Positions 803 to 61,542 of a DNA stretch of 64,000 nt are shown one piece after another (within the stretch, counting starts at the first letter, position 1; the number at the start of each line of letters is the position of its first letter). Origin of the DNA: Bacillales bacterium UBA3789 (GTDB lineage: Bacteria; Bacillota_I; Bacilli_A; RF39; UBA660); the NCBI GenBank assembly GCA_002369415.1, contig DFEZ01000002.1, positions 30,158 to 94,157 on the forward strand. The letters are read 5' to 3'. A program made the position numbers and the translations under genes. A model generated the notes under the pieces. The model had not been told where the DNA came from. It did not search any database and was given only the letters and a program-made list of their open reading frames with translations.

Positions 803-1457
803 TAGCCATCTTTTCAATTGCTTCTCGTGCAGCTTCTTGTTCTGCTTCTTTTTTGCTTGTTCCTATTCCGGAACCATAAATAATTCCATCAATAATTACA
901 TTTACAGTAAATCTTTTATCATGAGCAGGTCCTTCTTCATTAATTAGAACATATTCAAGACTTTTTTGTTCTGTTTGAACAAATTCTTGAAGGCTACTCT
1001 TATAATCACTGAAGAATGTTATTTTATCATCATTTATGAATGGAACAATCACATCTAATATTACTTTTCTTACTGTTGCATAACCTAAGTCTATATAGAT
1101 TGCTCCCATAAGTGCTTCAAATATATCAGCAACAATTGCTTTCTTTAAATGATCTTTTTCTTCTCCATGACCTACTAATATATATTTTTCTAATCCTAAA
1201 GATGTTGAATATGCATAATTGGCATTTTCACATACATAACTTGCTCTTACCTTAGTCATTTCACCTTCTGTTTCCTTATAATGGTTATATAAATAATCTG
1301 CAACAACTAAGTCTAGTACAGCATCTCCTAAGAATTCTAATCTTTCATAATTTGATTTTACTTTATGTTCATTTGAATATGAACTATGAGAAAAAGCTGC
1401 CTTATATAAATTTATATCTTTAGGTTTAATTTTTAATTTTTTAAATAGTTCTTCCAT
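792..1457 (-). CDS. rnc: Ribonuclease III.
   Basis: RNase III signature ERLEFLGDAVLDLVVADYLY. C-terminal dsRBD-like region (GSGIGTSKKEAEQEAAREAI). 221 aa. Confidence 0.9.
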   Translation of the reverse strand: MEELFKKLKIKPKDINLYKAAFSHSSYSNEHKVKSNYERLEFLGDAVLDLVVADYLYNHYKETEGEMTKVRASYVCENANYAYSTSLGLEKYILVGHGEEKDHLKKAIVADIFEALMGAIYIDLGYATVRKVILDVIVPFINDDKITFFSDYKSSLQEFVQTEQKSLEYVLINEEGPAHDKRFTVNVIIDGIIYGSGIGTSKKEAEQEAAREAIEKMAKKD

Positions 1458-1481
1458 TTAAATCACCTAATTAATTATAAC

Positions 1482-1512
1482 AAAAAAAATATAACTATAA
1501 AAGTTATATTTT
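1482..1512 (-). terminator. Rho-independent terminator downstream of the 720-aa repeat protein gene.
   Basis: Hairpin TATAACT-TTAT-AGTTATA followed by T8 in the minus-strand sense, immediately after the stop at 1512-1514. Confidence 0.5.
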
Positions 1513-3674
1513 TATCTTCTTCTAGGTGTTGCTGTTACTCCAGCCATTTGTTTATATAAAGTACTATCAATATAAACAACTGGATCCATTATTTCATCTT
1601 CTGGTTCTTCATCTGAGAATAATGCTAATTTTCTCAAATCATCAATTGCACCATCGATTTGTTCTTGAGTATATGGATTGTTTCCATTATGGAATTCTTC
1701 AAGTCTTCTATAATATAACTTATCATCTTTTGCTTTCTTAGCTTCTTTCTTAGCTAGATGTTTAACAGCAACTTCTGTATTGTGATTCATGAATTCTGCT
1801 TTCTTTTGTCTATCATCTTCTTTATAGTAAGCTTCTAATTCACTTTGACTTAATGATAACATGAAAGTTACTTTATCATTTAATTCTCTTTCATATCCTT
1901 CTTTATCAGAACCCATATATTTCTTTAATCTATCTTTTTTCCATGCTTCGAACTGACCTAAGTTATTATTATATCTATTCATTAGCAGTCTTACTTTTTG
2001 ACTAATTAGTGAATATTTTTCTCTTTCAGTTCTATCACTACCTATAACATCTAAACAATAGTTTTCAAATTCTACTATTGCATTTTGTCCATATCCACCA
2101 TGTGGTAATCCTCTTAGTTCAGATGTATATTCCTCAACTTTTTTCTTTAAGTCTATACTTCTTCCTGCCATTAATTCAAAATCAATATCAAATTCAGCTT
2201 TTGCAGCTTCTTTTTCTGCTGCACTTAAACTTCTATTATTATCAATTTGTTCATGAGTTGCTTTTAATTCTCTTAATCCTCTTTCATAGTCATTGATATA
2301 TCTATCATATACAGCTTGAATTTGTCTATATATTTCAAGAACAGTTGCTTTTTCCTTTTGAGTTGTAAGAATTTTTTCACATTGAACTTTAAATTCTCTT
2401 ACTTTAGCAGCTCCATATCCTCCTCTTTCAAGTCCTTGAAGAGTTTCAATCATTTCTTTAACTTTTTTCTTTAAATCAACTTTATGCCCACTATCTGCTT
2501 TGAAATCATCTTTTAATCTTTTCTTTCTAGCTGCTTTTTCTTTTTCAGTCATATCTGATTCATCTACTTTAGCAAGTTCTTCTTCTAAAGCTGCTTTTCT
2601 TCTATTATATTCATCTAATAACTTATGATATTCAATTTCTATTTTTGCAAGAATCACCTTGTCTTCTTTGCCAACTGCATGTCCATCTTCATCTATTCTT
2701 CTTGCCAAGGTTTCAAAATCTTCTAGTTTTGGTTTACCATATCCACCAAATTCTAGTTTTTCTAGATTACTTAGCATTTCTTTTATGCTTTCACCTATAT
2801 TAACATTATGTCCATACATATTATTAAAATCTATACGTAATTCTGCAATGTTTTTTTGTTTCTCTTCTTCATCAATAAATGTAGAAGCTTCAATTGTTTG
2901 AATTCTTTTAGCTAGATTATTTGCATCATATAAGTATCTATTTTTATATTGAGTTACTAGTGTACTTATTATTTTTTGTACTATATCAGAATCTGATAAG
3001 TCGTGTTTTTTACCCTCTTCTATTTGAGCTTTTGCTGCTTCCATGAATTCTTTTATCTTTTCATCTCCATATCCGCCATCAGGTAAATTTCTTAATTCAG
3101 CAGCCATTTCTCTTAGTTTTTTATCTAAATCAATTGGGAATCCAAATTCTTGCTCTTTATAATAATCAATCCAATAAGCTATCATTGCGATTACTTCTGC
3201 TTCTGAATCTGAATTTTCTTTAATAGTTCTAATTGTATTATTAAATGCATATAGTTTAGCTTGATAATCTGAAATATATTCTTTAGCAATACTAATTAGT
3301 TCTTCGATAGTTTCTATTCTAGATCTGCCTTGTTCATTACATTCTCTTACTTTGTCTTCTAATCTTTTCTTTATTTCATCAAGTTTGTTTTGTCCATATC
3401 CTAATCTTTCACTTGAAATATATCTTTTTAATTCAGAAATAGCTCTTTCATCTATATCTATCATTAATCTATATAGAATACTTTTATCATATTTTACTTT
3501 TTTTCTATCTAATTCTTTTTCAATAGAATATGCATCCATTAATCCTAATTCACTTAATACATCTAAAATATCATCTATTTCTTTTGTTGCATCTACTTTT
3601 TCTCTTGCAACTTCTGTTCTTTCTGGAACAACAACTGTATTATTTCTTCCTAATAATCTGTCTAATAAACCCAT
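1512..3674 (-). CDS. Large (720 aa) coiled-coil-like protein of unknown function. It contains at least four copies of a ~85-100 aa module ending in L..L..GGYG..K(I/V).EF, plus a fifth degenerate copy (RLGYGQNKLDEIKK).
   Basis: Repeats read directly in the translation:
- IDLDKKLREMAAELRNLPDGGYGDEKIKEF
- NIGESIKEMLSNLEKLEFGGYGKPKLEDF
- VDLKKKVKEMIETLQGLERGGYGAAKVREF
- IDLKKKVEEYTSELRGLPHGGYGQNAIVEF
No TM segment and no known catalytic motif. Confidence 0.6.
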   Translation of the reverse strand: MGLLDRLLGRNNTVVVPERTEVAREKVDATKEIDDILDVLSELGLMDAYSIEKELDRKKVKYDKSILYRLMIDIDERAISELKRYISSERLGYGQNKLDEIKKRLEDKVRECNEQGRSRIETIEELISIAKEYISDYQAKLYAFNNTIRTIKENSDSEAEVIAMIAYWIDYYKEQEFGFPIDLDKKLREMAAELRNLPDGGYGDEKIKEFMEAAKAQIEEGKKHDLSDSDIVQKIISTLVTQYKNRYLYDANNLAKRIQTIEASTFIDEEEKQKNIAELRIDFNNMYGHNVNIGESIKEMLSNLEKLEFGGYGKPKLEDFETLARRIDEDGHAVGKEDKVILAKIEIEYHKLLDEYNRRKAALEEELAKVDESDMTEKEKAARKKRLKDDFKADSGHKVDLKKKVKEMIETLQGLERGGYGAAKVREFKVQCEKILTTQKEKATVLEIYRQIQAVYDRYINDYERGLRELKATHEQIDNNRSLSAAEKEAAKAEFDIDFELMAGRSIDLKKKVEEYTSELRGLPHGGYGQNAIVEFENYCLDVIGSDRTEREKYSLISQKVRLLMNRYNNNLGQFEAWKKDRLKKYMGSDKEGYERELNDKVTFMLSLSQSELEAYYKEDDRQKKAEFMNHNTEVAVKHLAKKEAKKAKDDKLYYRRLEEFHNGNNPYTQEQIDGAIDDLRKLALFSDEEPEDEIMDPVVYIDSTLYKQMAGVTATPRRR

Positions 3675-8530: not shown

Positions 8531-9274
8531 TCACCTTTTATAGTATATAATTGCATCCTCATTATTAGTTGATTTATTTGTAAAATGACTCATTGATAAT
8601 ATATTTGGACGTAGAGCATTTACTACATTTAATATACTTTGAGTTGAACCCATAACTGTACTTTTTGTGAAGTTATTTTTACTAATTGAATAAATATATA
8701 ACAATTGTAGAAAACCTTCTTCTGATAAGTGTATTTTTAATTCATTAAATATTCTTCTTAACTCTTCATATGGGTCTTTATCTTTATCAATGAATAAGTC
8801 TAAATATTGTAGAGCATTTGATAATAATATTACATCATATTTATCAGCTTCATCTAAGTTTAATCTTGTAATATCTCCTACTCTATAATCTATTATATCG
8901 GGATTAGCTAATAATAATTCTTGTAGTCTTTTATAATTTTCTTCACTACTCATATATGGATTCATTTGTCTTAGATCTTTTTCACTAAATAAGTCTCCTG
9001 ATAACGGAACTTCTTTAATACCTGTTACTTTACTATATAGTTTTTTTCTTGGAGTTGTTGTAATAATATCTCTTTTTAATCTTCCAAATTTTGATACATT
9101 TTCATTTATATCATAAACAGTTACTTTTCCAGCTCCTAAAAGTATTGCATTATAGGCTTGATCTGATGATGAACCTAAAGTTAATACTTTTTTTCCTTTA
9201 AAATCTATTTCTTCAAATTCTCCTGATATATATTCTGTTGTAAAAGGATAAACTTCTTGGAATAATTTTTTCAT
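8531..9274 (-). CDS. Hypothetical 247-aa protein, possibly a Rossmann-fold methyltransferase-like (TrmK-like?) protein.
   Basis: KKVLTLGSSSDQAYNAILLGAGKVTVYDIN loosely resembles SAM-MTase motif I / TrmK (IGSDHAYLP). Sits between mutL and miaA. Assignment is weak. Confidence 0.45.
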   Translation of the reverse strand: MKKLFQEVYPFTTEYISGEFEEIDFKGKKVLTLGSSSDQAYNAILLGAGKVTVYDINENVSKFGRLKRDIITTTPRKKLYSKVTGIKEVPLSGDLFSEKDLRQMNPYMSSEENYKRLQELLLANPDIIDYRVGDITRLNLDEADKYDVILLSNALQYLDLFIDKDKDPYEELRRIFNELKIHLSEEGFLQLLYIYSISKNNFTKSTVMGSTQSILNVVNALRPNILSMSHFTNKSTNNEDAIIYYKR

Positions 9275-9299
9275 TTCCTAACCCCCTTTAATCGGCCAT

Positions 9300-9328
9300 A
9301 TTATACCATATTTGGGGTTTTTAATCAA
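9300..9328 (-). promoter_or_regulatory. Promoter with -35 TTGATT (rc of 9323-9328), 17-nt spacer and extended -10 TGGTATAAT (rc of 9300-9308). It overlaps the mutL stop and drives the 247-aa gene and miaA.
   Basis: rc reads CTTGATTAAAAACCCCAAATATGGTATAATATGGCCGATTAAAGGGGGTTAGGAAATG. Confidence 0.45.
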
Positions 9329-11090
9329 GAATACGCTTAAACATCTTCTCTAATTCATATTTAGTATATGTAATTATTGTTGGTCTTCCATGAGGACAAG
9401 TAAATGGATTTTCACAATATCTTATATTTTCTAGTATCCATTCTGTATCTTCTTTAGAAATATAGTCTCCTGCCATTACACTCATTCTACAAGCAGTAGT
9501 TGCAGCCATTCTCCAAATAAACTGATCAAAGTCTAGTTTACCTTTTTCAACCATTATATCTACTATCTTTCTAATTATTTCTTCTGCTTTATCTTCTGGT
9601 ATCCATGATGGATGGCTTCTAACTACAACTGTATTTTCACCAAATTCTTCTATATCAATACCATATTCTTTTAACATGTCTAATCTTTCTTTAGCAAGTA
9701 TAAATTCATCTTTTCTTAATTCTATTTTAATTGGTACTAATAAATCTATAATTATTGGTTTTTCTTTCATTTCTTTCATTATCTTTTCAAAGTTAATTCT
9801 TTCTGCTGCAGCATGTTGATCTATTAAATACATTCCATCTTCATTTTCTGCAATTATATAAGTTAAGAAGACTACTCCTTTTGGAATCATCTTTTTAATT
9901 CTACTAGTTTTTTCTTCTTCCATTTCAAATGGAACTTGTTCTTTAATTTCTTCTTCTATTTTCTTTTTTTCTTCTTGTACTTCAAAGTTTAATTTAATTT
10001 CTTCATATTTAGGTTCTTCTATTACTTCTTCTTTTACTGGAGTAGTTATTTTATTTTTAACTTCCTTTACTGATTCTATATCTCTTACACTTATTTCAGG
10101 AATTAAATTAATATTTTCTAATCTATCAGTAAATACATCTATTATTAAATCTTTTAGAGAATCTATTTTAGAGAACTTAATATCCATCTTAGTAGGATGT
10201 ATATTTATATCTACTAATATTGGATCTACATCAATATTTAATATTATTACTGGATATCTATCCTTATGAATATATGTGTGATAGCAATCTACTATACATT
10301 TATTTAATTCATTGTTTTTTATTACCCTTCCATTTACTAATGTAGTTATAGAGTTTCTATTACTTTTAGTTACTTCTGGATAAGATATATATCCATGAAT
10401 ATAGTAATCATCATTTTCTCCTTCTACAGGAATCATCTTTTTAGTAATATCTACTCCATATATTTCATATATTACTTTTAGAAGGTCTCCATTACCATCT
10501 GTTTTTAATAATATTTTGTCATTATTTATAAGAGTAAATTTAATATTAGGATAAGATAGAGCCATCTTATTAACATACTCTACTATATGAGCTAATTCTA
10601 CATATGGATTCTTTAAATATTTTAATCTTACTGGTGTATTATAGAATAAATCTGATACAGTTATTGATGTTCCTTTTTGAAGATCTGAACTTTCTACTTT
10701 TAAATCTTTTCCTCCATTTATTGTGACTAATGTTCCAACTTCTCCATTACTAGTTTTTAGTCTTACATTAGATACACTTGCGATAGATGGAAGTGCTTCA
10801 CCTCTAAATCCTAATGATTCTATATAGAACAAGTCATCTAAACTTCTTAATTTTGATGTAGCATGTCTTTCAAAAGCTAACTTAGCATCTTCTCTATCCA
10901 TACCTATTCCATCATCTATTACTTCTATTTGTTTAATACCTGATTCTATAAGTTTAATTGTAATTTCTGTTGATTCTGCATCAATAGAGTTCTCTACTAA
11001 TTCCTTAACAACATTCATACATTTTTCTACTACTTCTCCTGCTGCTATTTTATTTGCAAGTACTTCGTCCATTAAATGAATTTTACTCAT
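9321..11090 (-). CDS. mutL: DNA mismatch repair protein MutL.
   Basis: GHKL ATPase N-terminus MSKIHLMDEVLANKIAAGEVVEKCMNVVKELVENSIDA. C-terminal dimerisation/endonuclease region (…ACRMSVMAGD…). Start taken at MSKIH, which has a GGTGAT SD. Confidence 0.9.
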   Translation of the reverse strand: MSKIHLMDEVLANKIAAGEVVEKCMNVVKELVENSIDAESTEITIKLIESGIKQIEVIDDGIGMDREDAKLAFERHATSKLRSLDDLFYIESLGFRGEALPSIASVSNVRLKTSNGEVGTLVTINGGKDLKVESSDLQKGTSITVSDLFYNTPVRLKYLKNPYVELAHIVEYVNKMALSYPNIKFTLINNDKILLKTDGNGDLLKVIYEIYGVDITKKMIPVEGENDDYYIHGYISYPEVTKSNRNSITTLVNGRVIKNNELNKCIVDCYHTYIHKDRYPVIILNIDVDPILVDINIHPTKMDIKFSKIDSLKDLIIDVFTDRLENINLIPEISVRDIESVKEVKNKITTPVKEEVIEEPKYEEIKLNFEVQEEKKKIEEEIKEQVPFEMEEEKTSRIKKMIPKGVVFLTYIIAENEDGMYLIDQHAAAERINFEKIMKEMKEKPIIIDLLVPIKIELRKDEFILAKERLDMLKEYGIDIEEFGENTVVVRSHPSWIPEDKAEEIIRKIVDIMVEKGKLDFDQFIWRMAATTACRMSVMAGDYISKEDTEWILENIRYCENPFTCPHGRPTIITYTKYELEKMFKRILD

Positions 11091-11111
11091 ATTAATCACC
11101 AAACTTATTAT

Positions 11112-11144
11112 AACAAAAAAAAGAGTCTTATAGTAGACTCTTTC
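11112..11144 (-). terminator. Rho-independent terminator after pilin paralog 1. It is a near-identical copy of the terminator at 12313-12346.
   Basis: AAGAGTCTA-CTAT-AAGACTCTT followed by T8 in the minus-strand sense. Confidence 0.55.
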
Positions 11145-12293
11145 TTATTCCTCAACATATTGTTTTGCTACCATATAAAAGATTATATTGGCTATTATTT
11201 GTTGTTCTTGTTCTGTTGCTTTTCCATTAGAATGTCCCGTTTGAATAAAGGCATTATTTCCGTACGTAGATAAATATATTTTGTTGGCTGGTATGTCAGA
11301 TTCCATATTTGGACCTGAAAATGTTATCCAAACATCTCCATTAGCAACTTGTCCATATACATGACTTGTAGGAATCCTAAGTTCTTCTCCTTCTTTTTCA
11401 ATATCATATGGGTATTTTGTAAATACTCCACTCTTTTGAATTTTTACTTTATCAGATGATTTATAGTTTCTTACTCCACTATTTAATGTTAAATTTACAA
11501 ATCCAGCTAAAGTATTAAAATTAACATGACTTCCACATCCATTTGCAGTAATTGTATCATGTCCAAATATTGCTGCTCCACCATTCATTAAATATTTACT
11601 CATTTCTTCTGCTGCTTTTGCAGATAAATCTTTACTTGCATAACAGTCCCAAAATCCAAATACTATTTCATCATAATTCCAATTTCCAGATGTTCCAATA
11701 TAAGATTCTGGATTAGCATTAAAGTCTGATAATGCTACTGGTGTAACTTTGATTATTCCCTTTCCGTATGTATCCATCCAAGTTTTTAAATTGTTTCCTG
11801 CTTCTTTTGGATAAACATTTAATACTTTAATCTCTTTTAGTTTATCTTTTATTTCTTCTATATCATATGGTTGTGCTTTACAATACTTATCTATATGTTT
11901 TTCTTTTGAAGGAAATTCATATGTATAGTTATAATTTGTACAACATACTGCGACTGTATAATTATTTTCATCTAATTCAACATCGTTAGATCCTTTAGTT
12001 GTTGTAACATTTACTTTACCTGTACACTCTTCTCCTCTTGATCCTGGATCTTGTAGGGATGATAAAAATCCACTACTAAATAATGTTTCAAAGTCTATTT
12101 CTGTTACGGCAGGATGTTCCATTATATATTCTTCTGCTGCTTGTGATGCAGACTTTGCCATTGTATCATAACCATCTTTTTTAGCTTTCTCTTGATACAC
12201 TGAATATGCTTGTAATCCAAGACCAAATAATATTCCAAGAATTGCTATTACGGCTAATAATTCTACTAAAGAAAATCCTTTATTATTTTTCAT
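11145..12293 (-). CDS. Large (382 aa) type IV pilin-like protein with a class III (prepilin peptidase) signal. Paralog 1.
   Basis: MKNNKG^FSLVELLAVIAILGILFGLG has Gly at -1, Phe at +1 and Glu at +5. Shares ~100 N-terminal residues and a CCTNYNYTY(E/S)FPS motif with the adjacent paralog; the C-terminal half differs. Confidence 0.7.
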   Translation of the reverse strand: MKNNKGFSLVELLAVIAILGILFGLGLQAYSVYQEKAKKDGYDTMAKSASQAAEEYIMEHPAVTEIDFETLFSSGFLSSLQDPGSRGEECTGKVNVTTTKGSNDVELDENNYTVAVCCTNYNYTYEFPSKEKHIDKYCKAQPYDIEEIKDKLKEIKVLNVYPKEAGNNLKTWMDTYGKGIIKVTPVALSDFNANPESYIGTSGNWNYDEIVFGFWDCYASKDLSAKAAEEMSKYLMNGGAAIFGHDTITANGCGSHVNFNTLAGFVNLTLNSGVRNYKSSDKVKIQKSGVFTKYPYDIEKEGEELRIPTSHVYGQVANGDVWITFSGPNMESDIPANKIYLSTYGNNAFIQTGHSNGKATEQEQQIIANIIFYMVAKQYVEE

Positions 12294-12312
12294 ATAATCA
12301 CCAAAACTATTA

Positions 12313-12346
12313 TATCAAAAAAAAGAGTCTTGTTGTAGACTCTTTA
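12313..12346 (-). terminator. Rho-independent terminator after pilin paralog 2, duplicated together with the gene.
   Basis: AAGAGTCT-TGTTGT-AGACTCTT followed by T8 in the minus-strand sense. The distal arm overlaps the stop codon. Confidence 0.55.
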
Positions 12347-13381
12347 ATGAACTGCTCCACTATATGTTTCTGTCATTTGAATGCATGTTCTTTGACATCC
12401 ATCTTCGGCATTTGGAGTTCCAGCATCTGATTTTCTAACTACTCTGTTTTCAAAGTTACCACCATCATGGAACCATGAACCATCTGGTCTAAAATCTGTA
12501 TATGCTGTTGATTTTCCTCTATAAAATTTATATCCATGGAAACTAATTTCAGTTGCTCCATTTTTAAATTGACCTTGCCAACAAACGTGATCTACGTATG
12601 AATTGAAATATGATGGATCATCTGATTCACATGCTGCATGACCATCACTATTTTCTAGGTACTTTATTCTCATAGTATGATGATCTGTTGATACAACTGA
12701 TGATGAACAGAATTTATTTGATGTCTTACTATATGTACAAGCACATACTGCATGGTTATACTTATATCTTCTACATGGAAGATTTGGGTCTCCTCCAGGA
12801 GTATTTGCATCATAGCATCCTCCATATCTACCATTTGAACCTTTAGTACATATTTTATCAATATAGTCCATTGTATATATTCCTTTTTTAACAGTCTTTG
12901 TGTTACCTTCAGCACAGTTTGCACTATTAGTCTCAATTAAATTATCTACATTTGCTTCTGCTTGACATCCATTTTTATTTTGTAATTTATTTCCTGATGG
13001 GAATGAATATGTATAATTATAATTTGTACAACATATTGATACAACATATTCATTTTGATCTAATTCTCTAGCTGCAGTTCCTTCTATTGTACTTACTGTA
13101 ACTGTTCCAGTACAATTATTTCCTTTATCACCAGGGTCTGCTATTGATGATAAGTATCCAGAATTATATAAAGTATCAAAATTCATACTTGATGCTGCTG
13201 GATGATCCATCTTATATTCTTCCATTGCTTCTGTTGCAGATTTTGCCATTGTATCATAGCCTTGTTTTTTTGCTTTTTCTTTATATGTTGAATAAGCCTG
13301 AATACCCAATCCAAATAATATTCCTAATATTGCTATTACGGCAAGTAATTCAACTAATGAAAATCCTTTGTTATTTTTCAT
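12344..13381 (-). CDS. Large (345 aa) type IV pilin-like protein, paralog 2, with a Cys-rich (~20 Cys) divergent C-terminal domain.
   Basis: Same class III signal as paralog 1 (MKNNKGFSLVELLAVIAILGILFGLGIQAYSTYKEKAKKQGYDTMAKSA). The conserved ~300 nt of 5' coding sequence and the RBS (GGTGATTATATG) are near-identical at the DNA level to paralog 1. Confidence 0.7.
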   Translation of the reverse strand: MKNNKGFSLVELLAVIAILGILFGLGIQAYSTYKEKAKKQGYDTMAKSATEAMEEYKMDHPAASSMNFDTLYNSGYLSSIADPGDKGNNCTGTVTVSTIEGTAARELDQNEYVVSICCTNYNYTYSFPSGNKLQNKNGCQAEANVDNLIETNSANCAEGNTKTVKKGIYTMDYIDKICTKGSNGRYGGCYDANTPGGDPNLPCRRYKYNHAVCACTYSKTSNKFCSSSVVSTDHHTMRIKYLENSDGHAACESDDPSYFNSYVDHVCWQGQFKNGATEISFHGYKFYRGKSTAYTDFRPDGSWFHDGGNFENRVVRKSDAGTPNAEDGCQRTCIQMTETYSGAVH

Positions 13382-13427
13382 ATAATCACCTATTAATATT
13401 TTACTATAAATAAAAAAAGAAAGAAAG

Positions 13428-15188
13428 TTAAACTTCTTTCAAATATTCAAATAACTTTACAGAAACATCTTTTCCAACAATATTAGACAAATCTTCTTGT
13501 GATGCTTCTTTCATTTTCTTTAATGAACCAAATTTTTTCATTAGTTCTTTCTTTCTCTTTTCACCAATTCCTGGAACTACATCTAATACACTAGAAAGAG
13601 CTCCTTTAGATTTAATATTTCTATGATATGTAATTGCATATCTATGTACTTCTTCTTGAATTCTTGTTAAGAATAAGAATAATTTAGAGTCTTTATCTAC
13701 ATCTAATATTTCATATTTACTATTCATAATATGATTAGTTCTATGACTTTTATCTTTTACTAAGCCGATTACTGGAATATCTAAATTCAATGAATTTAAT
13801 ATTTCATTAGCAACTTTTATTTGTAACTCTCCACCATCCATTACAATTAAATCTGGTTTATATGTTTCATTCATTAGTACTTTAAAATATCTTCTATAAA
13901 GCACTTCTTTCATTGCTCCTAAATCATCTTTAACTTCTGTAGAGATTTTATATTTTCTATATAAATCTTTATTAGGTAGAAAATCATCAAATACAACCAT
14001 TCCTCCTACATAGAATGTTCCAAATAAATGTGAGTTATCAAATGATTCTATTCTATGAAGATCTTTAATACCTAATAGTTCAGATAATTCTTCTACTGCT
14101 TTTAATCTTTCATCGTCATTTCTTTTTAAAGTTTCTTTTTCTAAATCCATTTTTTCTTTAGCATTTTCTTTTGCTAAATCAACTAGTTTTTTTATCTTAC
14201 CTTTTGTAGGTTGAGATACTTTTATATTAAAGTAACTTTCTAATAATTCTTTATTTAATTCCATTGGAATAACTAATTCATTAGGAAGAATACCTTTATC
14301 ATAAAATTTAATTAAATACTCTGTTATTTCATTATCAAAGTCACCCATTGAAGAGATTATTTCATTATGTCTTCCAAATAATAGACCTTGTCTAATAAAG
14401 AATAATTCTATTCCTAAATAATTATTATCATAATAGAAATTAACTAAGTCAAAGTTATAATTATTATTTAAATCAATCTTTTGTTTTTTCAATGTAGTAT
14501 TAATATCATTTAACATTTCTTTTAACTCAAGTGCTTTTTCAAAATTAAGTGCTTCACTTGCTGCATTCATTTCTTCTTTTATCTTTTCAGATATAATTGA
14601 TGAATCTCCTTTTAAGAATGTTATTATTTCTTTTTTCATATTATCTATTGTTTCTTTAGGAATATCTTTTTTACAATAACCTAAACATTCATTAATATGA
14701 TAATACAAACATAAATCTTTTTTTAATTTATCACATTTTCTTAATGGATATATTCTATTAACAACATTAACTGTTTTTCTTGCTGCTGCTACATTTGGAT
14801 AAGGTCCATATAAATGATTTTTAATCTTTTTTCTATGAACATTTCTTACTATTTTTAATGTTGGATATTTATCATTAGTTAACTCTATATAAGGATATGA
14901 TTTATCATCTCTAAGTAATATATTATACTTAGGATCATATTTTTTTATTAAAGTGATTTCTAAGATTAGACTTTCTAGTTCAGATGATGTAACTATATAG
15001 TCAAAATCATCTATATCATCTACTAATAATTTAGTTTTACCAGTTACAGTTCTTGTAAAATAACTTCTTAATCTCTTTTGAAGATTCTTTGCTTTACCAA
15101 CATAGATAATTACTCCGTCTTTATTTTTCATTTGATAACTACCAGGTTTTGTTGGTACTAAAGATAGTTTTTCTTTAAAGTCTTTCAT
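13428..15188 (-). CDS. uvrC: Excinuclease ABC subunit C.
   Basis: GIY-YIG N-terminus (PGSYQMKNKDGVIIYVGKAKNLQKRLRSY). UvrC C-terminal HhH (…PGIGEKRKKELMKKFGS…). 586 aa. Confidence 0.9.
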   Translation of the reverse strand: MKDFKEKLSLVPTKPGSYQMKNKDGVIIYVGKAKNLQKRLRSYFTRTVTGKTKLLVDDIDDFDYIVTSSELESLILEITLIKKYDPKYNILLRDDKSYPYIELTNDKYPTLKIVRNVHRKKIKNHLYGPYPNVAAARKTVNVVNRIYPLRKCDKLKKDLCLYYHINECLGYCKKDIPKETIDNMKKEIITFLKGDSSIISEKIKEEMNAASEALNFEKALELKEMLNDINTTLKKQKIDLNNNYNFDLVNFYYDNNYLGIELFFIRQGLLFGRHNEIISSMGDFDNEITEYLIKFYDKGILPNELVIPMELNKELLESYFNIKVSQPTKGKIKKLVDLAKENAKEKMDLEKETLKRNDDERLKAVEELSELLGIKDLHRIESFDNSHLFGTFYVGGMVVFDDFLPNKDLYRKYKISTEVKDDLGAMKEVLYRRYFKVLMNETYKPDLIVMDGGELQIKVANEILNSLNLDIPVIGLVKDKSHRTNHIMNSKYEILDVDKDSKLFLFLTRIQEEVHRYAITYHRNIKSKGALSSVLDVVPGIGEKRKKELMKKFGSLKKMKEASQEDLSNIVGKDVSVKLFEYLKEV

Positions 15189-15204
15189 ATTATCACTTCC
15201 TTAT

Positions 15205-15236
15205 ATAAAAAACTACTCGATTGAGTAGTTTTATTA
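15205..15236 (-). terminator. Rho-independent terminator downstream of the 740-aa gene.
   Basis: AAAACTACTC-AATC-GAGTAGTTTT followed by a T-run (minus-strand sense). Confidence 0.5.
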
Positions 15237-17459
15237 TTATCTACTATGTGAGATATTGTCAATATTTTCTTTTGTAATTGCTACTCTATATTTATTAAGT
15301 TCATCTATTAAGATATCTCTTCTTACATATAGACCTTTAGTTAATTCTATACCTTTGAACACTCCTCTATTTCCAGTATATTGTTGTTCTAATTCTTCAT
15401 AACTATCGAAAGATGTGTCTTTATATTCTTTACCGTAACGTAGAGCTCCTTCACTTCTACAAGTTGCCATTATATTATTAATAACATCATAGAAGTTTAA
15501 GTATTCACCTTCATCATTAACGAATGCGAAGTTAGAATCTTCTCCATATTGTTCTTCAATACCATGAGCTAAGATTCCTACATATTCACTTAAGTTAACG
15601 TAGTATCCACTTTCTATATTACTTTCACTATTTTCAATTACTTTTTTACCTGCTAGATTAATATCTTCATGTTCATATCCGTAAATATTAATTCTACCAG
15701 TTCTTGGTTCTCTAATAACAGCTAAACCATTCATTTGATTAATTAAATCAGTATTAATATATGTAATCTTAATTCCTGACATATAATTTGATTTATCATC
15801 TAAATATGACATTTCATCTAGATCTATATCATCATCATTATCTGGTCCATTAGGATTATCTGGATTATTTGGACCGCCTGGATTTCCACCACCTAAATTA
15901 TTAAAGTTGAAATCTCTATTATTATCTTTGTCATCATCATTTTGATTATTATCATCAGTGTTGTTATCAACTGGATTATTATCATTAGTTGTATCAAATG
16001 GTTTATCATTATTATTTATATTCATTTGTTCTAGATTTAATTCAATTACTCTTGCCATAGTTTGTGCAAAGTAATCAACTATTCTTTCGTCTTGTTCATC
16101 TAATAATAATCTAATATCTTCTTCAGATAGGAATGGATTTACTCCTTCGAATCTAGGAATTGAAATGGTATCTCCATTTCTTAATTTGACTGCTAATAAA
16201 CGATAGTACTCTTCAAGAGTAATTCCTCTTTCATTAATATATCTCATTAGTAATCTAATATATGCTTCACGAACAGCATTTTCTAACTCTTCGTCTTCTT
16301 TTTCAGGTTTCTTTTCTTCCATTTGTTCTAGATTTAATTCAATTACTCTAGTCATGGCATTTGCGAAATATTCAACGATTCTATCTTCATCAGAATCAAG
16401 TAATCTATTAATATCATCTTGTGTTAGGAATGGATTCTTTCTTTCGAATTCAGGTACTCTTGATAAGTCTCCACTTAGTAAGCTTTCTCCTAACATTGTA
16501 AAATAATCATTTAATGTCATACCATTATCTTTAATATATTCCATTAAAGCATTAACATAAGATTGTCTTGCTGATAAGTTTTCTTCTTCAACTAAGTTAT
16601 CTTGTTCTTCTTGCTTTCTAATCTTTTCTTTTAAATGGTTTAGATATTCTAATACATCTTCTCTTGTTAATGAGTCAGTGAAGTCATCTTCTCCTCTAGC
16701 TAATAAATAAACGAAATCTCTTGGTTCTACCTCTGATATAATTTGATCTATGGCAGCTTCTGTTATTTCAGCTGGTAAGAATATATAACATCTTGATCCT
16801 TCTAACATTAATGTAGTTAAACCATTATCTGCAGCTTCAACTGATCTTTGTACTGGCCCAACATCAGTAACTATATTAACTCCAAAAGAGTCTTGTGCAA
16901 CAAAGTGAATTCTATCTGAATGGTGATTAGTAGTTCCATCAAAGATATCTTCTACTTTTACACCATCTTGGTCGATCATGACAATTCCTCTATTGAATCT
17001 ATAAACAACTCCATCTAATGAGAATAACCAGCCGATTCTATCACTTCTATTTTGATCATCTTGAGCATTAATTTCATCTAAGGTTACTGGAGCAACCCTT
17101 GCTGGTCCAGCTGATAAATATTCAGGGGAGTTAATTTCATATGTATATACTGGTCCATCTGGTGTTTGATCAACTTTAACTAGTTTTGGTCCATCAATAT
17201 TAACTTTCTCAACAGTTGCAGGTCCTTCTTTTTCTTCTGGTGCTGCAGCTTCTAATACACTTTTCTTGTAATCAATTTGTTCTGATTGATATTTTTTAAG
17301 ATCTTCAAGTGTATTAAATACTGGAGTTTTATGGAATAATACTTTATCAGTATCATCTATTTCTACAGCAGTAAAATATCCTGATTTCATCATATTTTCT
17401 TTTAATTCTTTAGAATCCTCATATATTTCATCATAGTTTTCAAAATCGTTATATGGCAT
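15237..17459 (-). CDS. Large (740 aa) soluble protein of unknown function.
- It has an internal tandem duplication of a ~90-aa module.
- It also has an N/D/P/G-rich low-complexity segment.
   Basis: Repeat A: ...YVNALMEYIKDNGMTLNDYFTMLGESLLSGDLSRVPEFERKNPFLTQDDINRLLDSDEDRIVEYFANAMTRVIELNLEQM. Repeat B: ...YIRLLMRYINERGITLEEYYRLLAVKLRNGDTISIPRFEGVNPFLSEEDIRLLLDEQDERIVDYFAQTMARVIELNLEQM. The DNA repeat has a ~300-bp period (about 16022 and 16322). Low-complexity stretch DNNPVDNNTDDNNQNDDDKDNNRDFNFNNLGGGNPGGPNNPDNPNGPDNDDD. Confidence 0.6.
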   Translation of the reverse strand: MPYNDFENYDEIYEDSKELKENMMKSGYFTAVEIDDTDKVLFHKTPVFNTLEDLKKYQSEQIDYKKSVLEAAAPEEKEGPATVEKVNIDGPKLVKVDQTPDGPVYTYEINSPEYLSAGPARVAPVTLDEINAQDDQNRSDRIGWLFSLDGVVYRFNRGIVMIDQDGVKVEDIFDGTTNHHSDRIHFVAQDSFGVNIVTDVGPVQRSVEAADNGLTTLMLEGSRCYIFLPAEITEAAIDQIISEVEPRDFVYLLARGEDDFTDSLTREDVLEYLNHLKEKIRKQEEQDNLVEEENLSARQSYVNALMEYIKDNGMTLNDYFTMLGESLLSGDLSRVPEFERKNPFLTQDDINRLLDSDEDRIVEYFANAMTRVIELNLEQMEEKKPEKEDEELENAVREAYIRLLMRYINERGITLEEYYRLLAVKLRNGDTISIPRFEGVNPFLSEEDIRLLLDEQDERIVDYFAQTMARVIELNLEQMNINNNDKPFDTTNDNNPVDNNTDDNNQNDDDKDNNRDFNFNNLGGGNPGGPNNPDNPNGPDNDDDIDLDEMSYLDDKSNYMSGIKITYINTDLINQMNGLAVIREPRTGRINIYGYEHEDINLAGKKVIENSESNIESGYYVNLSEYVGILAHGIEEQYGEDSNFAFVNDEGEYLNFYDVINNIMATCRSEGALRYGKEYKDTSFDSYEELEQQYTGNRGVFKGIELTKGLYVRRDILIDELNKYRVAITKENIDNISHSR

Positions 17460-30497: not shown

Positions 30498-30514
30498 CTA
30501 CTATTTATTATATC

Positions 30515-30546
30515 AAAAAACTAAGCTTTTTAAAGCTTAGTTTAAA
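30515..30546. terminator. Terminator at the 3' end of the NAD operon. It overlaps the nadK stop.
   Basis: CTAAGCTTT-TTA-AAGCTTAG palindrome flanked by A/T runs. Confidence 0.5.
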
Positions 30547-39914: not shown

Positions 39915-39948
39915 CAAATGAAAAAGGTACCTATTGATACCTTTTTAT
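39915..39948 (-). terminator. Rho-independent terminator after the 636-aa pilin-like gene.
   Basis: AAAAGGTA-CCTATTGA-TACCTTTT plus a T-run (minus-strand sense). Overlaps the stop codon. Confidence 0.45.
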
Positions 39949-41855
39949 CCTCCCATTACATTAGGTTTATATGTTATCATTACAAAGCCATCACCAGAAC
40001 TCAATATTTCTCCTGTTAATTGATTGCTTTCTAATGATGATAATGTAGATGAGTGATTGTATAGTTCAGAGTTATTTTCAATACGGAAAGAAGATCCGTC
40101 ATAATTTAAATCTTGTAAAACAGTATGAACAGCTTCTCCATCATCACTTTGCATACAATTGTAGCAATATAATGCTGAATCCCATATTTTTATTCTGTTT
40201 GTTCCATTATATAAGTAACTTGAACCTCCACCAGATCCAGTGTTTTCACTACCTGAGGCAAATCCTGCTCCGAATCCTGCTCCTGCTCCTGGAACTGGGA
40301 ATTCTGAAGTATAATATCTTGTTGGTACTTCGGCAAAAAGTGGTTGATAATAATCAAAAATGTTTCCACCATAACCACAACCAGGGAACCTCCAATTTGT
40401 AGGCCACCATTCATTTAGTTCTGTTGACCAAACTCCTTCTTTTTGACCACTTTCACCAGTGACTCCACCGGCACTTCCACCTTTTCCTTTTATAACTCCA
40501 TTAGAATAATATGATCCTCCGCCTCCACCGGCAATAATCATAAAATGATCCCAATATTCATCATTTTGTATTACTCTTTCAAGATCTTTAAGTGTACTTG
40601 TGGAAACTATAGTTGCTCCTCCTCCGGAACCAACTGTACCAGTTGTTAAATTTCTTTGTATAGCTGGACCTCCACCGATTTTTCCGCCTTCTATTTGAGC
40701 ATCATCGGTAGTAGCCATTTTTCCTGCGCCACCAACATTTACATATAAAATAGTTCCCTTTTGAGCTGATACTAAAGCTTCAGCATATCCTCCATAACCC
40801 ATTTCAGTTGGGCTATCGGACATTGCTCCTCCAGCAGCTCCCCAAACTTGTATTAAATAATATCCTGTTGTAGGAACTTCAAAATATTGATTGTATCCTG
40901 GAATATATGTAAATCTTGTTTTGGCAGGTTCCCAAACTGCATATAACGTAGTGTCTCTATTAAATCTTTGATATGAATCAACACTATAATCTATATTTGT
41001 TTCTCCTTCTCCACGAACTGTCCAACCCACAAGTGAACATCCATCTTTATGAATACCATTTTCAGATGTTGCATTTGGTAGTCTTACATTTTCACCAGAG
41101 TTTACTGTAACTGGGTTAACTGTACCAGTTGCTCCTTCACCTAATTCAAATCTAACTGTATATGTATCTACTTCAGGTGGTAAGATATCAAGACCTGAAG
41201 ACATATCTGATAATTTTGATGTAAAATCCATTGGTGCAACTATATTTATACCATATCTTGTGGATAATTCTGGATGATAGAATCCAATATAGATTGATAA
41301 AACATTGTCATCTGTTATTTCAATTAAAATATTATTTATTGATAAGTCTTTTTGTTCATGACATTCTTCTGTTTTTGTTTTACATGAAACAGGTTTACCG
41401 GCATCATTTATTTTTACATAAGAACTTCCTAAATCAGGTAATTCGTAATCAGTAATTTCTCTATCAGGATTTCCATATTGAATTTTAAATTCATCATCAA
41501 GTGTTGGATTTCCATCAGGGTGTGATGCTGACTGTGTGAATCTTTGTGAAACTATTAAACGTCTTCTAGTTCCATCTGATAAGTTACAATCAACTTGGTG
41601 AGTAACTTTTTTAGTTGTACTATCAACAGTTCTTTTATAAGTAGCATGAGTTAGACCAATTGTTATAAAGTCATCTTGAATATCTTTAGTTAAAATATTT
41701 TTATAACTATAAATTCTTGTTTTATAATTCTCAGCCATTCTTTTATCATTGTAAGCAGAAATTGTTGAGAATAAAGACATTGCTATTACAACAACAAGTA
41801 CAAAACATACTAATACTTCTATTATTGTAATTCCTTTATTATTAAGTTTTTTCAT
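39945..41855 (-). CDS. Giant (636 aa) type IV pseudopilin-like protein. It carries a Listeria-Bacteroides (Flg_new) repeat and a C-terminal ALK/LTK-type glycine-rich domain.
   Basis: Class III signal MKKLNNKG^ITIIEVLVCFVLVVVIAMSLF, with Glu at +5. Middle part YTVRFELGEGATGTVNPVTVNSGENVRLPNATSENGIHKDGCSLVGWTVRG…TTLYAVWEP has the Flg_new pattern. C-terminal part FTYIPGYNQYFEVPTTGYYLIQVWGAAGGAMSDSPTEMGYGGYAEALVSAQKGTILYVNVGGAGK…GGGGGSYYSNG…GKGGSAGGVTG matches the Gly_rich (PF12810-like) pattern. The start codon overlaps the stop of the upstream pseudopilin gene. Confidence 0.7.
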   Translation of the reverse strand: MKKLNNKGITIIEVLVCFVLVVVIAMSLFSTISAYNDKRMAENYKTRIYSYKNILTKDIQDDFITIGLTHATYKRTVDSTTKKVTHQVDCNLSDGTRRRLIVSQRFTQSASHPDGNPTLDDEFKIQYGNPDREITDYELPDLGSSYVKINDAGKPVSCKTKTEECHEQKDLSINNILIEITDDNVLSIYIGFYHPELSTRYGINIVAPMDFTSKLSDMSSGLDILPPEVDTYTVRFELGEGATGTVNPVTVNSGENVRLPNATSENGIHKDGCSLVGWTVRGEGETNIDYSVDSYQRFNRDTTLYAVWEPAKTRFTYIPGYNQYFEVPTTGYYLIQVWGAAGGAMSDSPTEMGYGGYAEALVSAQKGTILYVNVGGAGKMATTDDAQIEGGKIGGGPAIQRNLTTGTVGSGGGATIVSTSTLKDLERVIQNDEYWDHFMIIAGGGGGSYYSNGVIKGKGGSAGGVTGESGQKEGVWSTELNEWWPTNWRFPGCGYGGNIFDYYQPLFAEVPTRYYTSEFPVPGAGAGFGAGFASGSENTGSGGGSSYLYNGTNRIKIWDSALYCYNCMQSDDGEAVHTVLQDLNYDGSSFRIENNSELYNHSSTLSSLESNQLTGEILSSGDGFVMITYKPNVMGG

Positions 41856-42634
41856 TATCTATTCACCTCCATTGTGGCAAATGAATAGAAATTATTTCCA
41901 TCCTTTTTATGTTTTATTTGTATTATTACTCTATATCTAGAATAATTAAGTGACTGAGTTGTATAATCTGGTAAAGTTAAAATATAATCTTGAAATGCAG
42001 ATGAAAAAACTTTTCCTGAATATACTTTTTCACAATATGTTAGGACTTTGTTTTTCTTATCTTCATCAGCTTCTACGATGTTTACTCTTTTATTTACACA
42101 AGTATCAAATTTATTTGTAATACACTCTTCATAGCCATCAGGGTCATTTCTATACTGATAACACATTTCAATTTCTCTATCTAGTGGAGTTCCATCTTTT
42201 GGATGCTTATTTGTCTTTACAGTTGTTTTAAAATCTGGTGTTACTCCACCTATTCTATAGTTAGTTATATATATTTCACAGGCATTTCCTGTATCTTTTT
42301 CACAGTTTTGTATTTCTAGTGAATCAACTAGATTTATACATATTTGACGTTGATTATCAACTGATTCAATATCACTACATTCAAATCTCATATAACCATA
42401 CTCTTGCATAAAGTCTTTTTTGGCATCAGATGGTTTAAATGCTGCTGATTCAACTAGTTTTTTAATCCAAAAAACGGCATATTTACTATCTATGTCGTCA
42501 TAATTTTCTCTTTTTTCATATTCACCAATAAGAGGATAAAAATTACTGTACACCATTGTAAACAAAACCATTAAAAAAACAGTTACAATAAGTGTTTCCG
42601 CAAGAACGAAGCCTTTATTACTTAATTTTTTCAT
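41855..42634 (-). CDS. Cys-rich type IV pseudopilin-like protein (259 aa).
   Basis: Class III signal MKKLSNKG^FVLAETLIVTVFLMVLFTMVYS (Gly at -1, Phe at +1, Glu at +5). About 11 Cys in the mature part. Translationally coupled to the 636-aa gene. Confidence 0.65.
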   Translation of the reverse strand: MKKLSNKGFVLAETLIVTVFLMVLFTMVYSNFYPLIGEYEKRENYDDIDSKYAVFWIKKLVESAAFKPSDAKKDFMQEYGYMRFECSDIESVDNQRQICINLVDSLEIQNCEKDTGNACEIYITNYRIGGVTPDFKTTVKTNKHPKDGTPLDREIEMCYQYRNDPDGYEECITNKFDTCVNKRVNIVEADEDKKNKVLTYCEKVYSGKVFSSAFQDYILTLPDYTTQSLNYSRYRVIIQIKHKKDGNNFYSFATMEVNR

Positions 42635-54669: not shown

Positions 54670-54699
54670 ATATTAAAAAAGAGACTTTTTTAGTCTCTT
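54670..54699 (-). terminator. Rho-independent terminator after the surface protein gene.
   Basis: AAGAGACT-AAAAA-AGTCTCTT plus T6 (minus-strand sense). Confidence 0.5.
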
Positions 54700-61486: not shown

Positions 61487-61509
61487 ATCATCACCTCTTT
61501 TATTATAAC

Positions 61510-61542
61510 AAAAAAATAATTGACATAAAAGTCAATTATTAA
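61510..61542 (-). terminator. Rho-independent terminator of efp.
   Basis: AATAATTGAC-ATAAAA-GTCAATTATT plus T7 (minus-strand sense). Confidence 0.5.

Follow-up and report, generated by a model that had tools for sequence, protein, structure and literature searches.

The stretch of DNA analysed here, called the window, comprises 64,000 nucleotides of Bacillales bacterium UBA3789 (assembly GCA_002369415.1, contig DFEZ01000002.1, positions 30,158 to 94,157). Our subject is a pair of adjacent type IV pilin genes on its minus strand, located between uvrC and mutL and named pil345 and pil382 after the number of amino acids that they encode. All positions refer to the 64-kb window; L-numbers denote loci or contigs of relatives or strains, P-numbers denote homologous proteins, and c4703 and c5121 are contigs. 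The pil345 gene (12344-13381) is flanked by uvrC (13428-15188), and mutL flanks the pil382 gene (11145-12293) on the other side. The first-pass annotation of this DNA, made from the sequence alone, had described two adjacent minus-strand genes of 382 and 345 codons between mutL and uvrC, and this is borne out by the open reading frame (ORF) calls, in which both are complete. In the ORF list, mutL begins with a TTG at 11102; its probable true start is the ATG at 11090, and its orthologues begin with MSKI(H/Q).

The explanation that we consider probable is that pil345 and pil382 are old bimodular type IV pilins, organised as separate units at a site that turns over, and that pil345 is an allelic mosaic. 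Each protein is made up of a class III signal (MKNNKG followed by FSLVE), a pilin module of about 130 residues, a short linker and an effector module of about 200-240 residues.

Build of the genes and their products

Both proteins start with the same class III signal, MKNNKG followed by FSLVELLAVIAILGIL, as had been noticed at first pass. The stretch formed by MKNNKG and FSLVELLAVIAILGILFGLG has a short basic leader ending in glycine, Phe or Met at position +1, glutamate at +5 and about 20 hydrophobic residues. The cutoffs of PF07963 (32.0 and 31.9 bits for the two proteins, cutoff 21.2) and TIGR02532 (27.8 and 27.6 bits, cutoff 16.3) are passed by both, in agreement with the earlier view that they are paralogous large type IV pilins with a common N-terminal module. 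This pilin module is formed by residues 1-136 of each protein (12974-13381 in pil345 and 11886-12293 in pil382, minus strand). In pil345 it consists of the leader MKNNKG, F1, E5, the alpha1 helix and a beta-sheet, with cysteines 90, 117, 118 and 139, the equivalent residues of pil382 being cysteines 90, 117, 118 and 138. The internal motif CCTNYNYTY(E/S)FPS is present in both proteins, and their C-terminal parts are unrelated, BLASTP aligning nothing beyond residue 142; both had been reported before.

AlphaFold2 models were built on family alignments and have a mean predicted local distance difference test score (pLDDT) of 91.2 for pil382 and 83.8 for pil345. In both models, a 50-residue N-terminal helix lies on a four-stranded sheet, which gives the alpha-beta pilin fold of a long helix on an antiparallel sheet, followed by a separate C-terminal domain. 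The junction between the two domains is located around residues 136-150, and the N- and C-terminal parts have different sets of homologues, as in modular pilins. In profile searches of the PDB, the pilin module was the only part of either protein to be matched. Identity with the competence major pilin ComGC was considered and rejected: the two proteins score 33.6 and 21.9 bits against NF040999, where the cutoff is 75, and the neighbours are uvrC and mutL, with no comG genes.

The C-terminal module of pil382 (residues 150-378 approximately, 11160-11846, minus strand) has a ThuA-like fold, resembling class I glutamine amidotransferases (GATase1), with similarity to PDB entries 4jqs, 1t0b, 2gk3 and 3rht at sequence identities of 10-15%. 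It also matches the Pfam family DUF5057 with 30.7 bits (cutoff 27.9), but the match is short, covering profile positions 336-378 of 378, and a literature search for DUF5057 was without any result. Residues D222, H245, D246 and T247 (the last three in the invariant sequence FGHDT), H311, Q315, Y340, Q351, E363 and N369 are invariant in 64 homologues, and because these residues are polar and invariant, the module is likely to contain a binding or catalytic site. A catalytic class I glutamine amidotransferase was rejected, only the fold being common. The nucleophile-like C217 is replaceable, being serine, alanine or valine in 9 of the 64 homologues, and covaries with C253 (both cysteines are present in 51 homologues and just one of them in 4), so that it appears to behave as the disulfide partner of C253, not as a catalytic residue.

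Modules of the pil382 type are also found behind Sec signal peptides, in surface proteins with Listeria-Bacteroides repeats (for example P0093 and P0088), and are thus not specific to type 4 filaments; on the unrelated pilin scaffolds P0115 and P0117 they are again C-terminal. In the window, a 780-residue protein (54690-57032, minus strand) contains a signal peptide, a C-terminal membrane anchor and a divergent InlB B-repeat (Flg_new_2); repeats of this class also stand beside the ThuA-like module in its non-pilin homologues.

The C-terminal module of pil345 (residues 141-345, 12347-12961, minus strand) is rich in cysteine and histidine, with 11 cysteines and several conserved histidines; the whole protein has 15 cysteines, rather than the 20 or so counted at first. 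The module belongs to no Pfam family, pil345 has no PDB match outside its pilin part, and the C-terminal module has no match in BFVD. An exhaustive HMMER search of 1.84 billion (1.84e9) representative proteins returned only 17 relatives of it. Among the longer relatives that were inspected, most are large multi-module proteins that have a class III signal and end in the Cys/His-rich domain, so the domain is found mostly at the ends of other pilins; P0197 has the domain without such a signal, and several short matches fell outside the inspection.

Each pilin gene would constitute its own transcription unit, with a -10 box, the ribosome-binding site (RBS) GGTGAT, the ORF and a strong terminator. 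A candidate promoter of pil345 (TTAACT and TATAGT, separated by 17 nt; 13403-13431, minus strand) is a consensus match, scoring 9/12 in the promoter scan, and overlaps the uvrC stop codon; in relatives, a TATAAT directly follows the uvrC stop. No terminator was found after uvrC, and the region has no stable fold (-2.4 kcal/mol, z 0.58). A simple sigma-70 scan was uninformative in this AT-rich DNA, giving 39 promoter-like sites versus 46.8 in shuffled sequences. Downstream of pil345, the terminator scan and RNA folding reveal an intrinsic terminator (12322-12345, minus strand), composed of AAAGAGTCTACAACAAGACTCTTT and a T run, and the same stem is present after the 345-type gene in L006 and L007. 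The intrinsic terminator of pil382 (11117-11146, minus strand), found in the same ways, is a copy of it. The first-pass observation that the same hairpin, AAAGAGTCTAC..AAGACTCTT with T8, lies 3' of both genes is thus confirmed by the terminator scan, and this hairpin occurs at just these two sites in the window. In total, the scan returned four sites versus 0.9 expected, including both pilin hairpins, which fold with -11.4 and -13 kcal/mol (z -2.7 and -3.6).

Between the two pilin genes, the T run is followed by an extended -10 box, TGATATAAT (12309-12317), and the RBS GGTGAT (12297-12302) of pil382, the whole spanning 12297-12322 on the minus strand. The same succession precedes mutL (11088-11120, minus strand), with a T run, the extended -10 box TGTTATAAT (11107-11115), GGTGAT (11095-11100) and the ATG at 11090. 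The pattern TTTTTTGNTATAAT is found at five places in the window (0.18 expected), each of them on the coding strand with an ATG 15-18 nt downstream. The recurrent T run and TGnTATAAT are located at 1474-1487, 11107-11120, 12309-12322, 30507-30520 and 61502-61515, all on the minus strand. In the full layout, found five times versus the same 0.18 expected, a hairpin is followed by the T run, TGnTATAAT, 15-18 nt containing GGTGAT, and the ATG; the overlap of the terminator with the next promoter implies very short leaders. The RBS taken at first pass as a mark of the duplication is indeed shared by both genes, but RBS, T run and TATAAT are in part a genome-wide intergenic layout. Relatives, too, keep the T run and TGTTATAAT before mutL: in L003 and L006 the preceding hairpin is the same one, in L004 and L010 it is a different one. 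Given this conservation behind differing hairpins, mutL very probably has its own extended -10 (TGnTATAAT) promoter, located between the terminator and the mutL RBS, and need not rely on the read-through that had been suggested for it.

The uvrC-mutL site in related genomes

Exact copies of the locus are present in one Joint Genome Institute (JGI) metagenome and one sheep-rumen run. A scan of species-representative genomes yielded about 30 loci from uncultured low-GC gut and rumen Bacilli, variously labelled by NCBI as Bacillales, Mollicutes, Erysipelotrichaceae or Tenericutes. The gene order uvrC, pilin, mutL, (methyltransferase-like), miaA is kept in about 20 of these loci. What lies between uvrC and mutL differs. 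In most relatives (at least 13 species) there is one short pilin of 130-160 residues, consisting of the pilin module alone. L005 and L008 have one ThuA-type pilin and L006 has one pilin of the Cys-rich type. Both types are present in the order of the window in L007 and in the opposite order in L081, L082/L083 and L084, and L090 has three ThuA-type pilins in tandem. L013 has a 611-residue pilin.

In L010, a rumen relative, the site is occupied by a pilin with four or five type I dockerin repeats (9995-11362; PF00404, E 2e-39), which hints at a pilus that docks cohesin-bearing partners. L091 contains a tri-modular gene (1344-3121) in which a pilin module, a ThuA-like module and a Cys-rich module are joined and which is cut by one frameshift into ORFs of 477 and 114 residues; this is either a fusion of both gene types or a sequencing error within such a fusion. 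A decayed remnant array is found in L003, the closest relative (uvrC 94% identical). Here (9983-11340), the first pilin module stops just past its linker; fused to it, in another frame, is a ThuA-type gene that contains stops and deletions and has FGYDT in place of FGHDT. The array comes from a single contig of a metagenome-assembled genome, for which mis-assembly is possible. The uvrC-pilin unit of L011 and L012 is not continued by mutL. The place of mutL is taken by the genes that lie ahead of the giant pilins in L043, suggesting a rearrangement at pilin genes. Between uvrC and the pilin gene or genes, L006 (8733-9986) and L081 (2583-3827) have a gene of the GH114 family (endo-alpha-1,4-polygalactosaminidase); the protein encoded in L006 is hydrophobic in its N-terminal region, where it weakly matches T4SS_pilin.

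Seven genomes have both types of pilin. When their alpha1 regions (the first 40 or so mature residues) are compared, the closest sequence is the paralogue of the same genome in the window, L007 and c4703, with 0.90-0.93 versus 0.53-0.72 for the best orthologue; the same is partly true of L081 and c5121. For the globular part of the pilin module, grouping in these genomes is usually by type; in the window genome, the within-genome similarity extends over the whole module. Recent gene conversion was rejected for alpha1, the synonymous sites of which have diverged as much within genomes as between them, so that any exchange is not recent in the window genome, and older exchange or shared constraint may account for the similarity.

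Three loci bear on how the site changes. The single gene of L005 is a mosaic, its upstream region and first 60 or so codons coming from gene 1 of L007 and the rest from gene 2 of L007. The first 180 nt of gene 1 in L003 are 93-95% identical to pil382 of the window and only 77-85% to pil345. The L091 fusion is without a second pilin module. Together, these indicate that sequence was exchanged or deleted by way of the 5' part of the pilin genes. Within one subclade, the site has repeatedly gained, duplicated, swapped, fused and lost C-terminal modules, and the pilin module, especially its alpha1-coding 5' end, would act as a recombination handle.

A more far-reaching proposal joins two claims, and taken as a whole we hold it to be possible but doubtful. 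It states both that the uvrC-mutL site is a hotspot of module exchange via the pilin-module handle and that the Cys/His-rich domain is a new terminal fold dedicated to pilins. In such a hotspot, reduced-genome Bacilli would swap, stack, fuse and discard ThuA-like, Cys/His-rich, dockerin and other modules. The Cys/His-rich domain might be metal-bound rather than disulfide-bonded, as the anaerobic habitat suggests, and would form a receptor- or phage-exposed tip, polymorphic through balancing selection.

Assembly, strain variation and age of the pair

We infer that the products of both genes are assembled into filaments. A prepilin peptidase would cut the leader, a type 4 filament machine would polymerise the subunits via alpha1, and the filament would then show two distinct effector modules, which probably bind or act on extracellular ligands in the rumen or gut. 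A candidate motor for these pilins is located about 28 kb away (42770-44827, plus strand), where a 685-residue assembly ATPase of the PilB/GspE family is encoded (PF00437, E 1e-114). It has the Walker A sequence GATGSGKS and a CxxC...CxxC motif; its closest NCBIfam models are GspE and PilB, both scoring under their equivalog cutoffs. Its C-terminal tail of about 270 residues is of low complexity and rich in Q, P, T and V, which is unusual for a cytoplasmic secretion ATPase, and no PilC gene adjoins it. Divergent from the ATPase gene are two further pilin-like genes (39945-42634, minus strand), which overlap by one base, encode proteins of 259 and 636 residues and have weak N-terminal matches to ComGD and ComGE. 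Both have atypical class III signals, MKKLSNKG followed by FVLAE in the 259-residue protein and MKKLNNKG followed by ITIIE in the 636-residue protein; the latter contains a Listeria-Bacteroides repeat (Flg_new) and an ALK/LTK-type glycine-rich domain (PF12810).

Several points weigh against the reading of pil345 and pil382 as modular filament subunits with a shared history of exchange. No platform protein (PilC/T2SSF) or prepilin peptidase (PilD) was found in the window or the fetched loci: in a Pfam search of 40 window ORFs the ATPase is the sole pilus machinery, and a search for the peptidase A24 motif in all fetched ORFs found none. With its many invariant His, Asp, Gln and Glu residues, the ThuA-like module could be an enzyme instead of an adhesin. 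The proteins may be minor (tip) or major subunits; their alpha1 helices are like those of major pilins, and the orthologous site of relatives contains what appears to be an ordinary small pilin. The genome-specific alpha1 sequences could reflect co-adaptation to one assembly machine rather than gene conversion. Finally, all comparison sequences are metagenome assemblies, in which shared N-terminal modules are repeats prone to mis-assembly, and L003 and L091 are single contigs.

That neither a platform protein nor a peptidase was seen, and that the polar residues are enzyme-like, would also suit a different arrangement, in which the proteins are not filament subunits. The pilin module with its class III signal would then hold enzymes or binding domains at the cell surface, in the manner of a membrane anchor or short stalk. 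The sugar-binding proteins of the archaeal bindosome would be an analogue of such a display, to whose ATPase model the window ATPase also has a faint match. Surface display would suit cells with reduced envelopes; in related genomes, very large pilin-like genes (600-1400 residues) are scattered singly over the chromosome, away from machinery. We nevertheless judge it unlikely. The alpha-beta pilin fold is complete in the pilin module, the alpha1 regions of both proteins (F1, E5) score best against the major pilins of true pili, and the GspE/PilB-type ATPase with its tetracysteine motif is present in the window. In Streptococcus sanguinis, moreover, the modular pilins PilB and PilC are incorporated in pili (Raynaud et al. 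2021, PMC8179133).

Giant pilin-like proteins of 930-2270 residues, often encoded in tandem pairs, occur in relatives as well (L043:5788-13271, L045, L049, L056, L069 and L075). Their flanks of about 10 kb mostly lack assembly genes; L075 has an ATPase gene nearby.

Within the species, the two genes behave very differently, and the strain-level variation looked for since the first pass is a property of pil345 but not of pil382. In its 90%-identity cluster, pil345 has alleles with as many as 43 of the 345 residues changed, in blocks of residues 32-137, 148-193 and 209-345, whereas those of pil382 are nearly invariant, with at most seven differing positions. When L086 is compared with the window, pil382 is 99.6% and mutL 98.7% identical, but pil345 only 89.0%, with 90-nt windows of the gene going down to 72%. 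In L087 and L088, uvrC is 99.5% identical to that of the window, and pil345 87.9% and 96.9%, respectively. In the divergent blocks, the proportion of synonymous differences (pS) is 0.2-0.49, versus 0.013-0.018 in the flanking pil382 and uvrC, and the ratio of nonsynonymous to synonymous divergence (dN/dS) is 0.1-0.3. An artefact is unlikely, as the allele block of L086 is found again in the independent assembly L089 with 97-100% identity. This pattern has the signature of a mosaic of old, deeply diverged alleles that would have been reshuffled by homologous recombination between strains, with no intragenomic cassette mechanism, and it points to recombination combined with balancing or diversifying selection on an exposed protein.

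The first-pass annotation had likened the pair to expressed and variant pilin cassettes. In a model of this kind, the tandem copies would recombine for antigenic or phase variation as in Neisseria pilE/pilS. Such a system would have about 400 nt of homology at its disposal in the shared N-terminal module, recombination or deletion of copies at the 5' end has occurred over evolutionary time (L003, L005 and L091), and pil345 is hypervariable among strains. We regard it all the same as very unlikely. Both copies are complete genes, with leader, start codon, RBS, -10 box and terminator, and the C-terminal modules, which are the parts that would need to vary, have unrelated folds and thus no homology to exchange. 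At 73% nucleotide identity, and with identical runs of at most 19 nt, the two copies are poorly suited to frequent exchange by RecA. Nor are the strain-variant sites copied from the neighbour: in a site-by-site test of L086, the adjacent paralogue matches the strain allele at 23 of the 74 sites that differ between strain and window, and the window allele at 33 of 74, by which gene conversion from this paralogue was rejected as the source of the pil345 variation. The near invariance of pil382 also argues against cassettes, and no G4 motif (G3+N1-7 x4) is present on either strand of 9000-16000.

The preferred reading of old paralogues is also supported by the comparison of pil345 and pil382 themselves. 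BLASTP aligns them with 66% identity over residues 1-142 (E 6e-65), leaving the remaining 200-240 residues unmatched. Identity is 96% at the amino acid and 83% at the nucleotide level for residues 1-27, falling to 71% and 74% for residues 1-100 and to 68% and 73% for residues 1-136; the longest identical run in register is 19 nt. The description of the first 100 or so residues as near-identical in protein and DNA therefore does not stand. By the Nei-Gojobori method, pS between the N-terminal modules is 0.39-0.55 and synonymous divergence (dS) about 0.55-1.0, close to saturation and comparable with the values for orthologues from different species. Each type has its own orthologues, in 22 full-length clusters of 43-58% identity for pil345 and about 87 of 42-68% for pil382. 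The pair of both types recurs with a homologous inter-gene hairpin in L007, the uvrC of which is only 81% identical. Since the same pair exists in other species, in either order, and synonymous sites are near saturation, the duplication is, as judged from these sequences, old, at a site that turns over fast.

A recent tandem duplication with later replacement of one C-terminal domain, giving a young lineage-specific paralogue as first claimed, is hardly credible: the terminator and promoter segments are about 89% identical, above the coding N-terminal modules, and the paralogues of the window genome are mutual best matches over the whole pilin module (0.56 versus 0.47 for the best orthologue), but the dS values, the many species with orthologues of each type (43-68% identity), the L007 array and the reversed array of three other species stand against it, the hairpin stem is kept in L006 too and its similarity is thus conservation and not youth, and the data place the split of the N-terminal modules before the split from the L003 and L007 lineages.

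Between the transketolase gene and uvrC, the window also encodes an acidic protein of 740 residues (15237-17459, minus strand) with internal repeats and a low-complexity stretch rich in N, D and P. It has no Pfam match and no predicted membrane segment and is weakly conserved, with 59% identity in the closest relative and about 30% in others. An Rfam scan of the window found two tRNAs and nothing else.

Relation to known systems

The two genes add two uncatalogued architectures to the repertoire of modular pilins, one of them with a module that has no structural or family match and is seemingly found almost only on pilins. One syntenic site is seen with short and with modular pilins, and with duplicated, reordered, fused or decayed ones, across related species, which makes it a natural series for studying the grafting of modules. 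A hypervariable pilin beside an invariant one, in a background that is about 99% identical, points to a module under selection from hosts, phages or competitors. Three tempting readings of the locus, namely recent duplication, cassette switching and read-through into mutL, are corrected; the current understanding of type 4 filaments is not overturned.

With Neisseria pilE/pilS, the locus shares the presence of several pilin-related sequences with conserved 5' and divergent 3' parts, and a pilin gene that is highly polymorphic in the population. Unlike that of Neisseria, the locus has neither silent copies devoid of promoter and 5' end nor a G4 element, its 3' parts encode non-homologous domains, and its variation is allelic between strains instead of being donated by a neighbour. 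Ruminococcus albus, a Gram-positive rumen bacterium, also attaches to its substrate with type IV pilin-like proteins, the cellulose-binding proteins CbpC/GP25. The likeness, by description, lies in the rumen habitat, the exact copies of our locus coming from sheep-rumen and related metagenomes; the R. albus proteins are small pilins and not bimodular. Compared with known ThuA-like and class I amidotransferase proteins and DUF5057, the module of pil382 differs in being extracellular and grafted on a pilin.

The closest parallel is with the modular pilins of S. sanguinis, where PilB combines a pilin module with a vWA module and PilC with a lectin module, both being found in pili (PMC8179133). 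The two-module build of pil345 and pil382 fits this concept: a small pilin module with a class III signal, a short linker and a bulky functional module, in a monoderm host with several such proteins per organism. Dockerin and Listeria-Bacteroides repeat modules, present in our family in L010 and P0112, appear in the portion of the architecture list of that paper available to us; within the same portion, ThuA, GATase-like, DUF5057 and orphan Cys/His-rich modules are absent. In contrast to the S. sanguinis genes, those described here are not part of a pil operon but lie by themselves in the interval from uvrC to mutL, with a separate predicted promoter and terminator for each, and the orthologous site of relatives holds an ordinary short pilin. 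Modular pilins are thus a known kind, of which the two modules and the behaviour of their locus are new examples.

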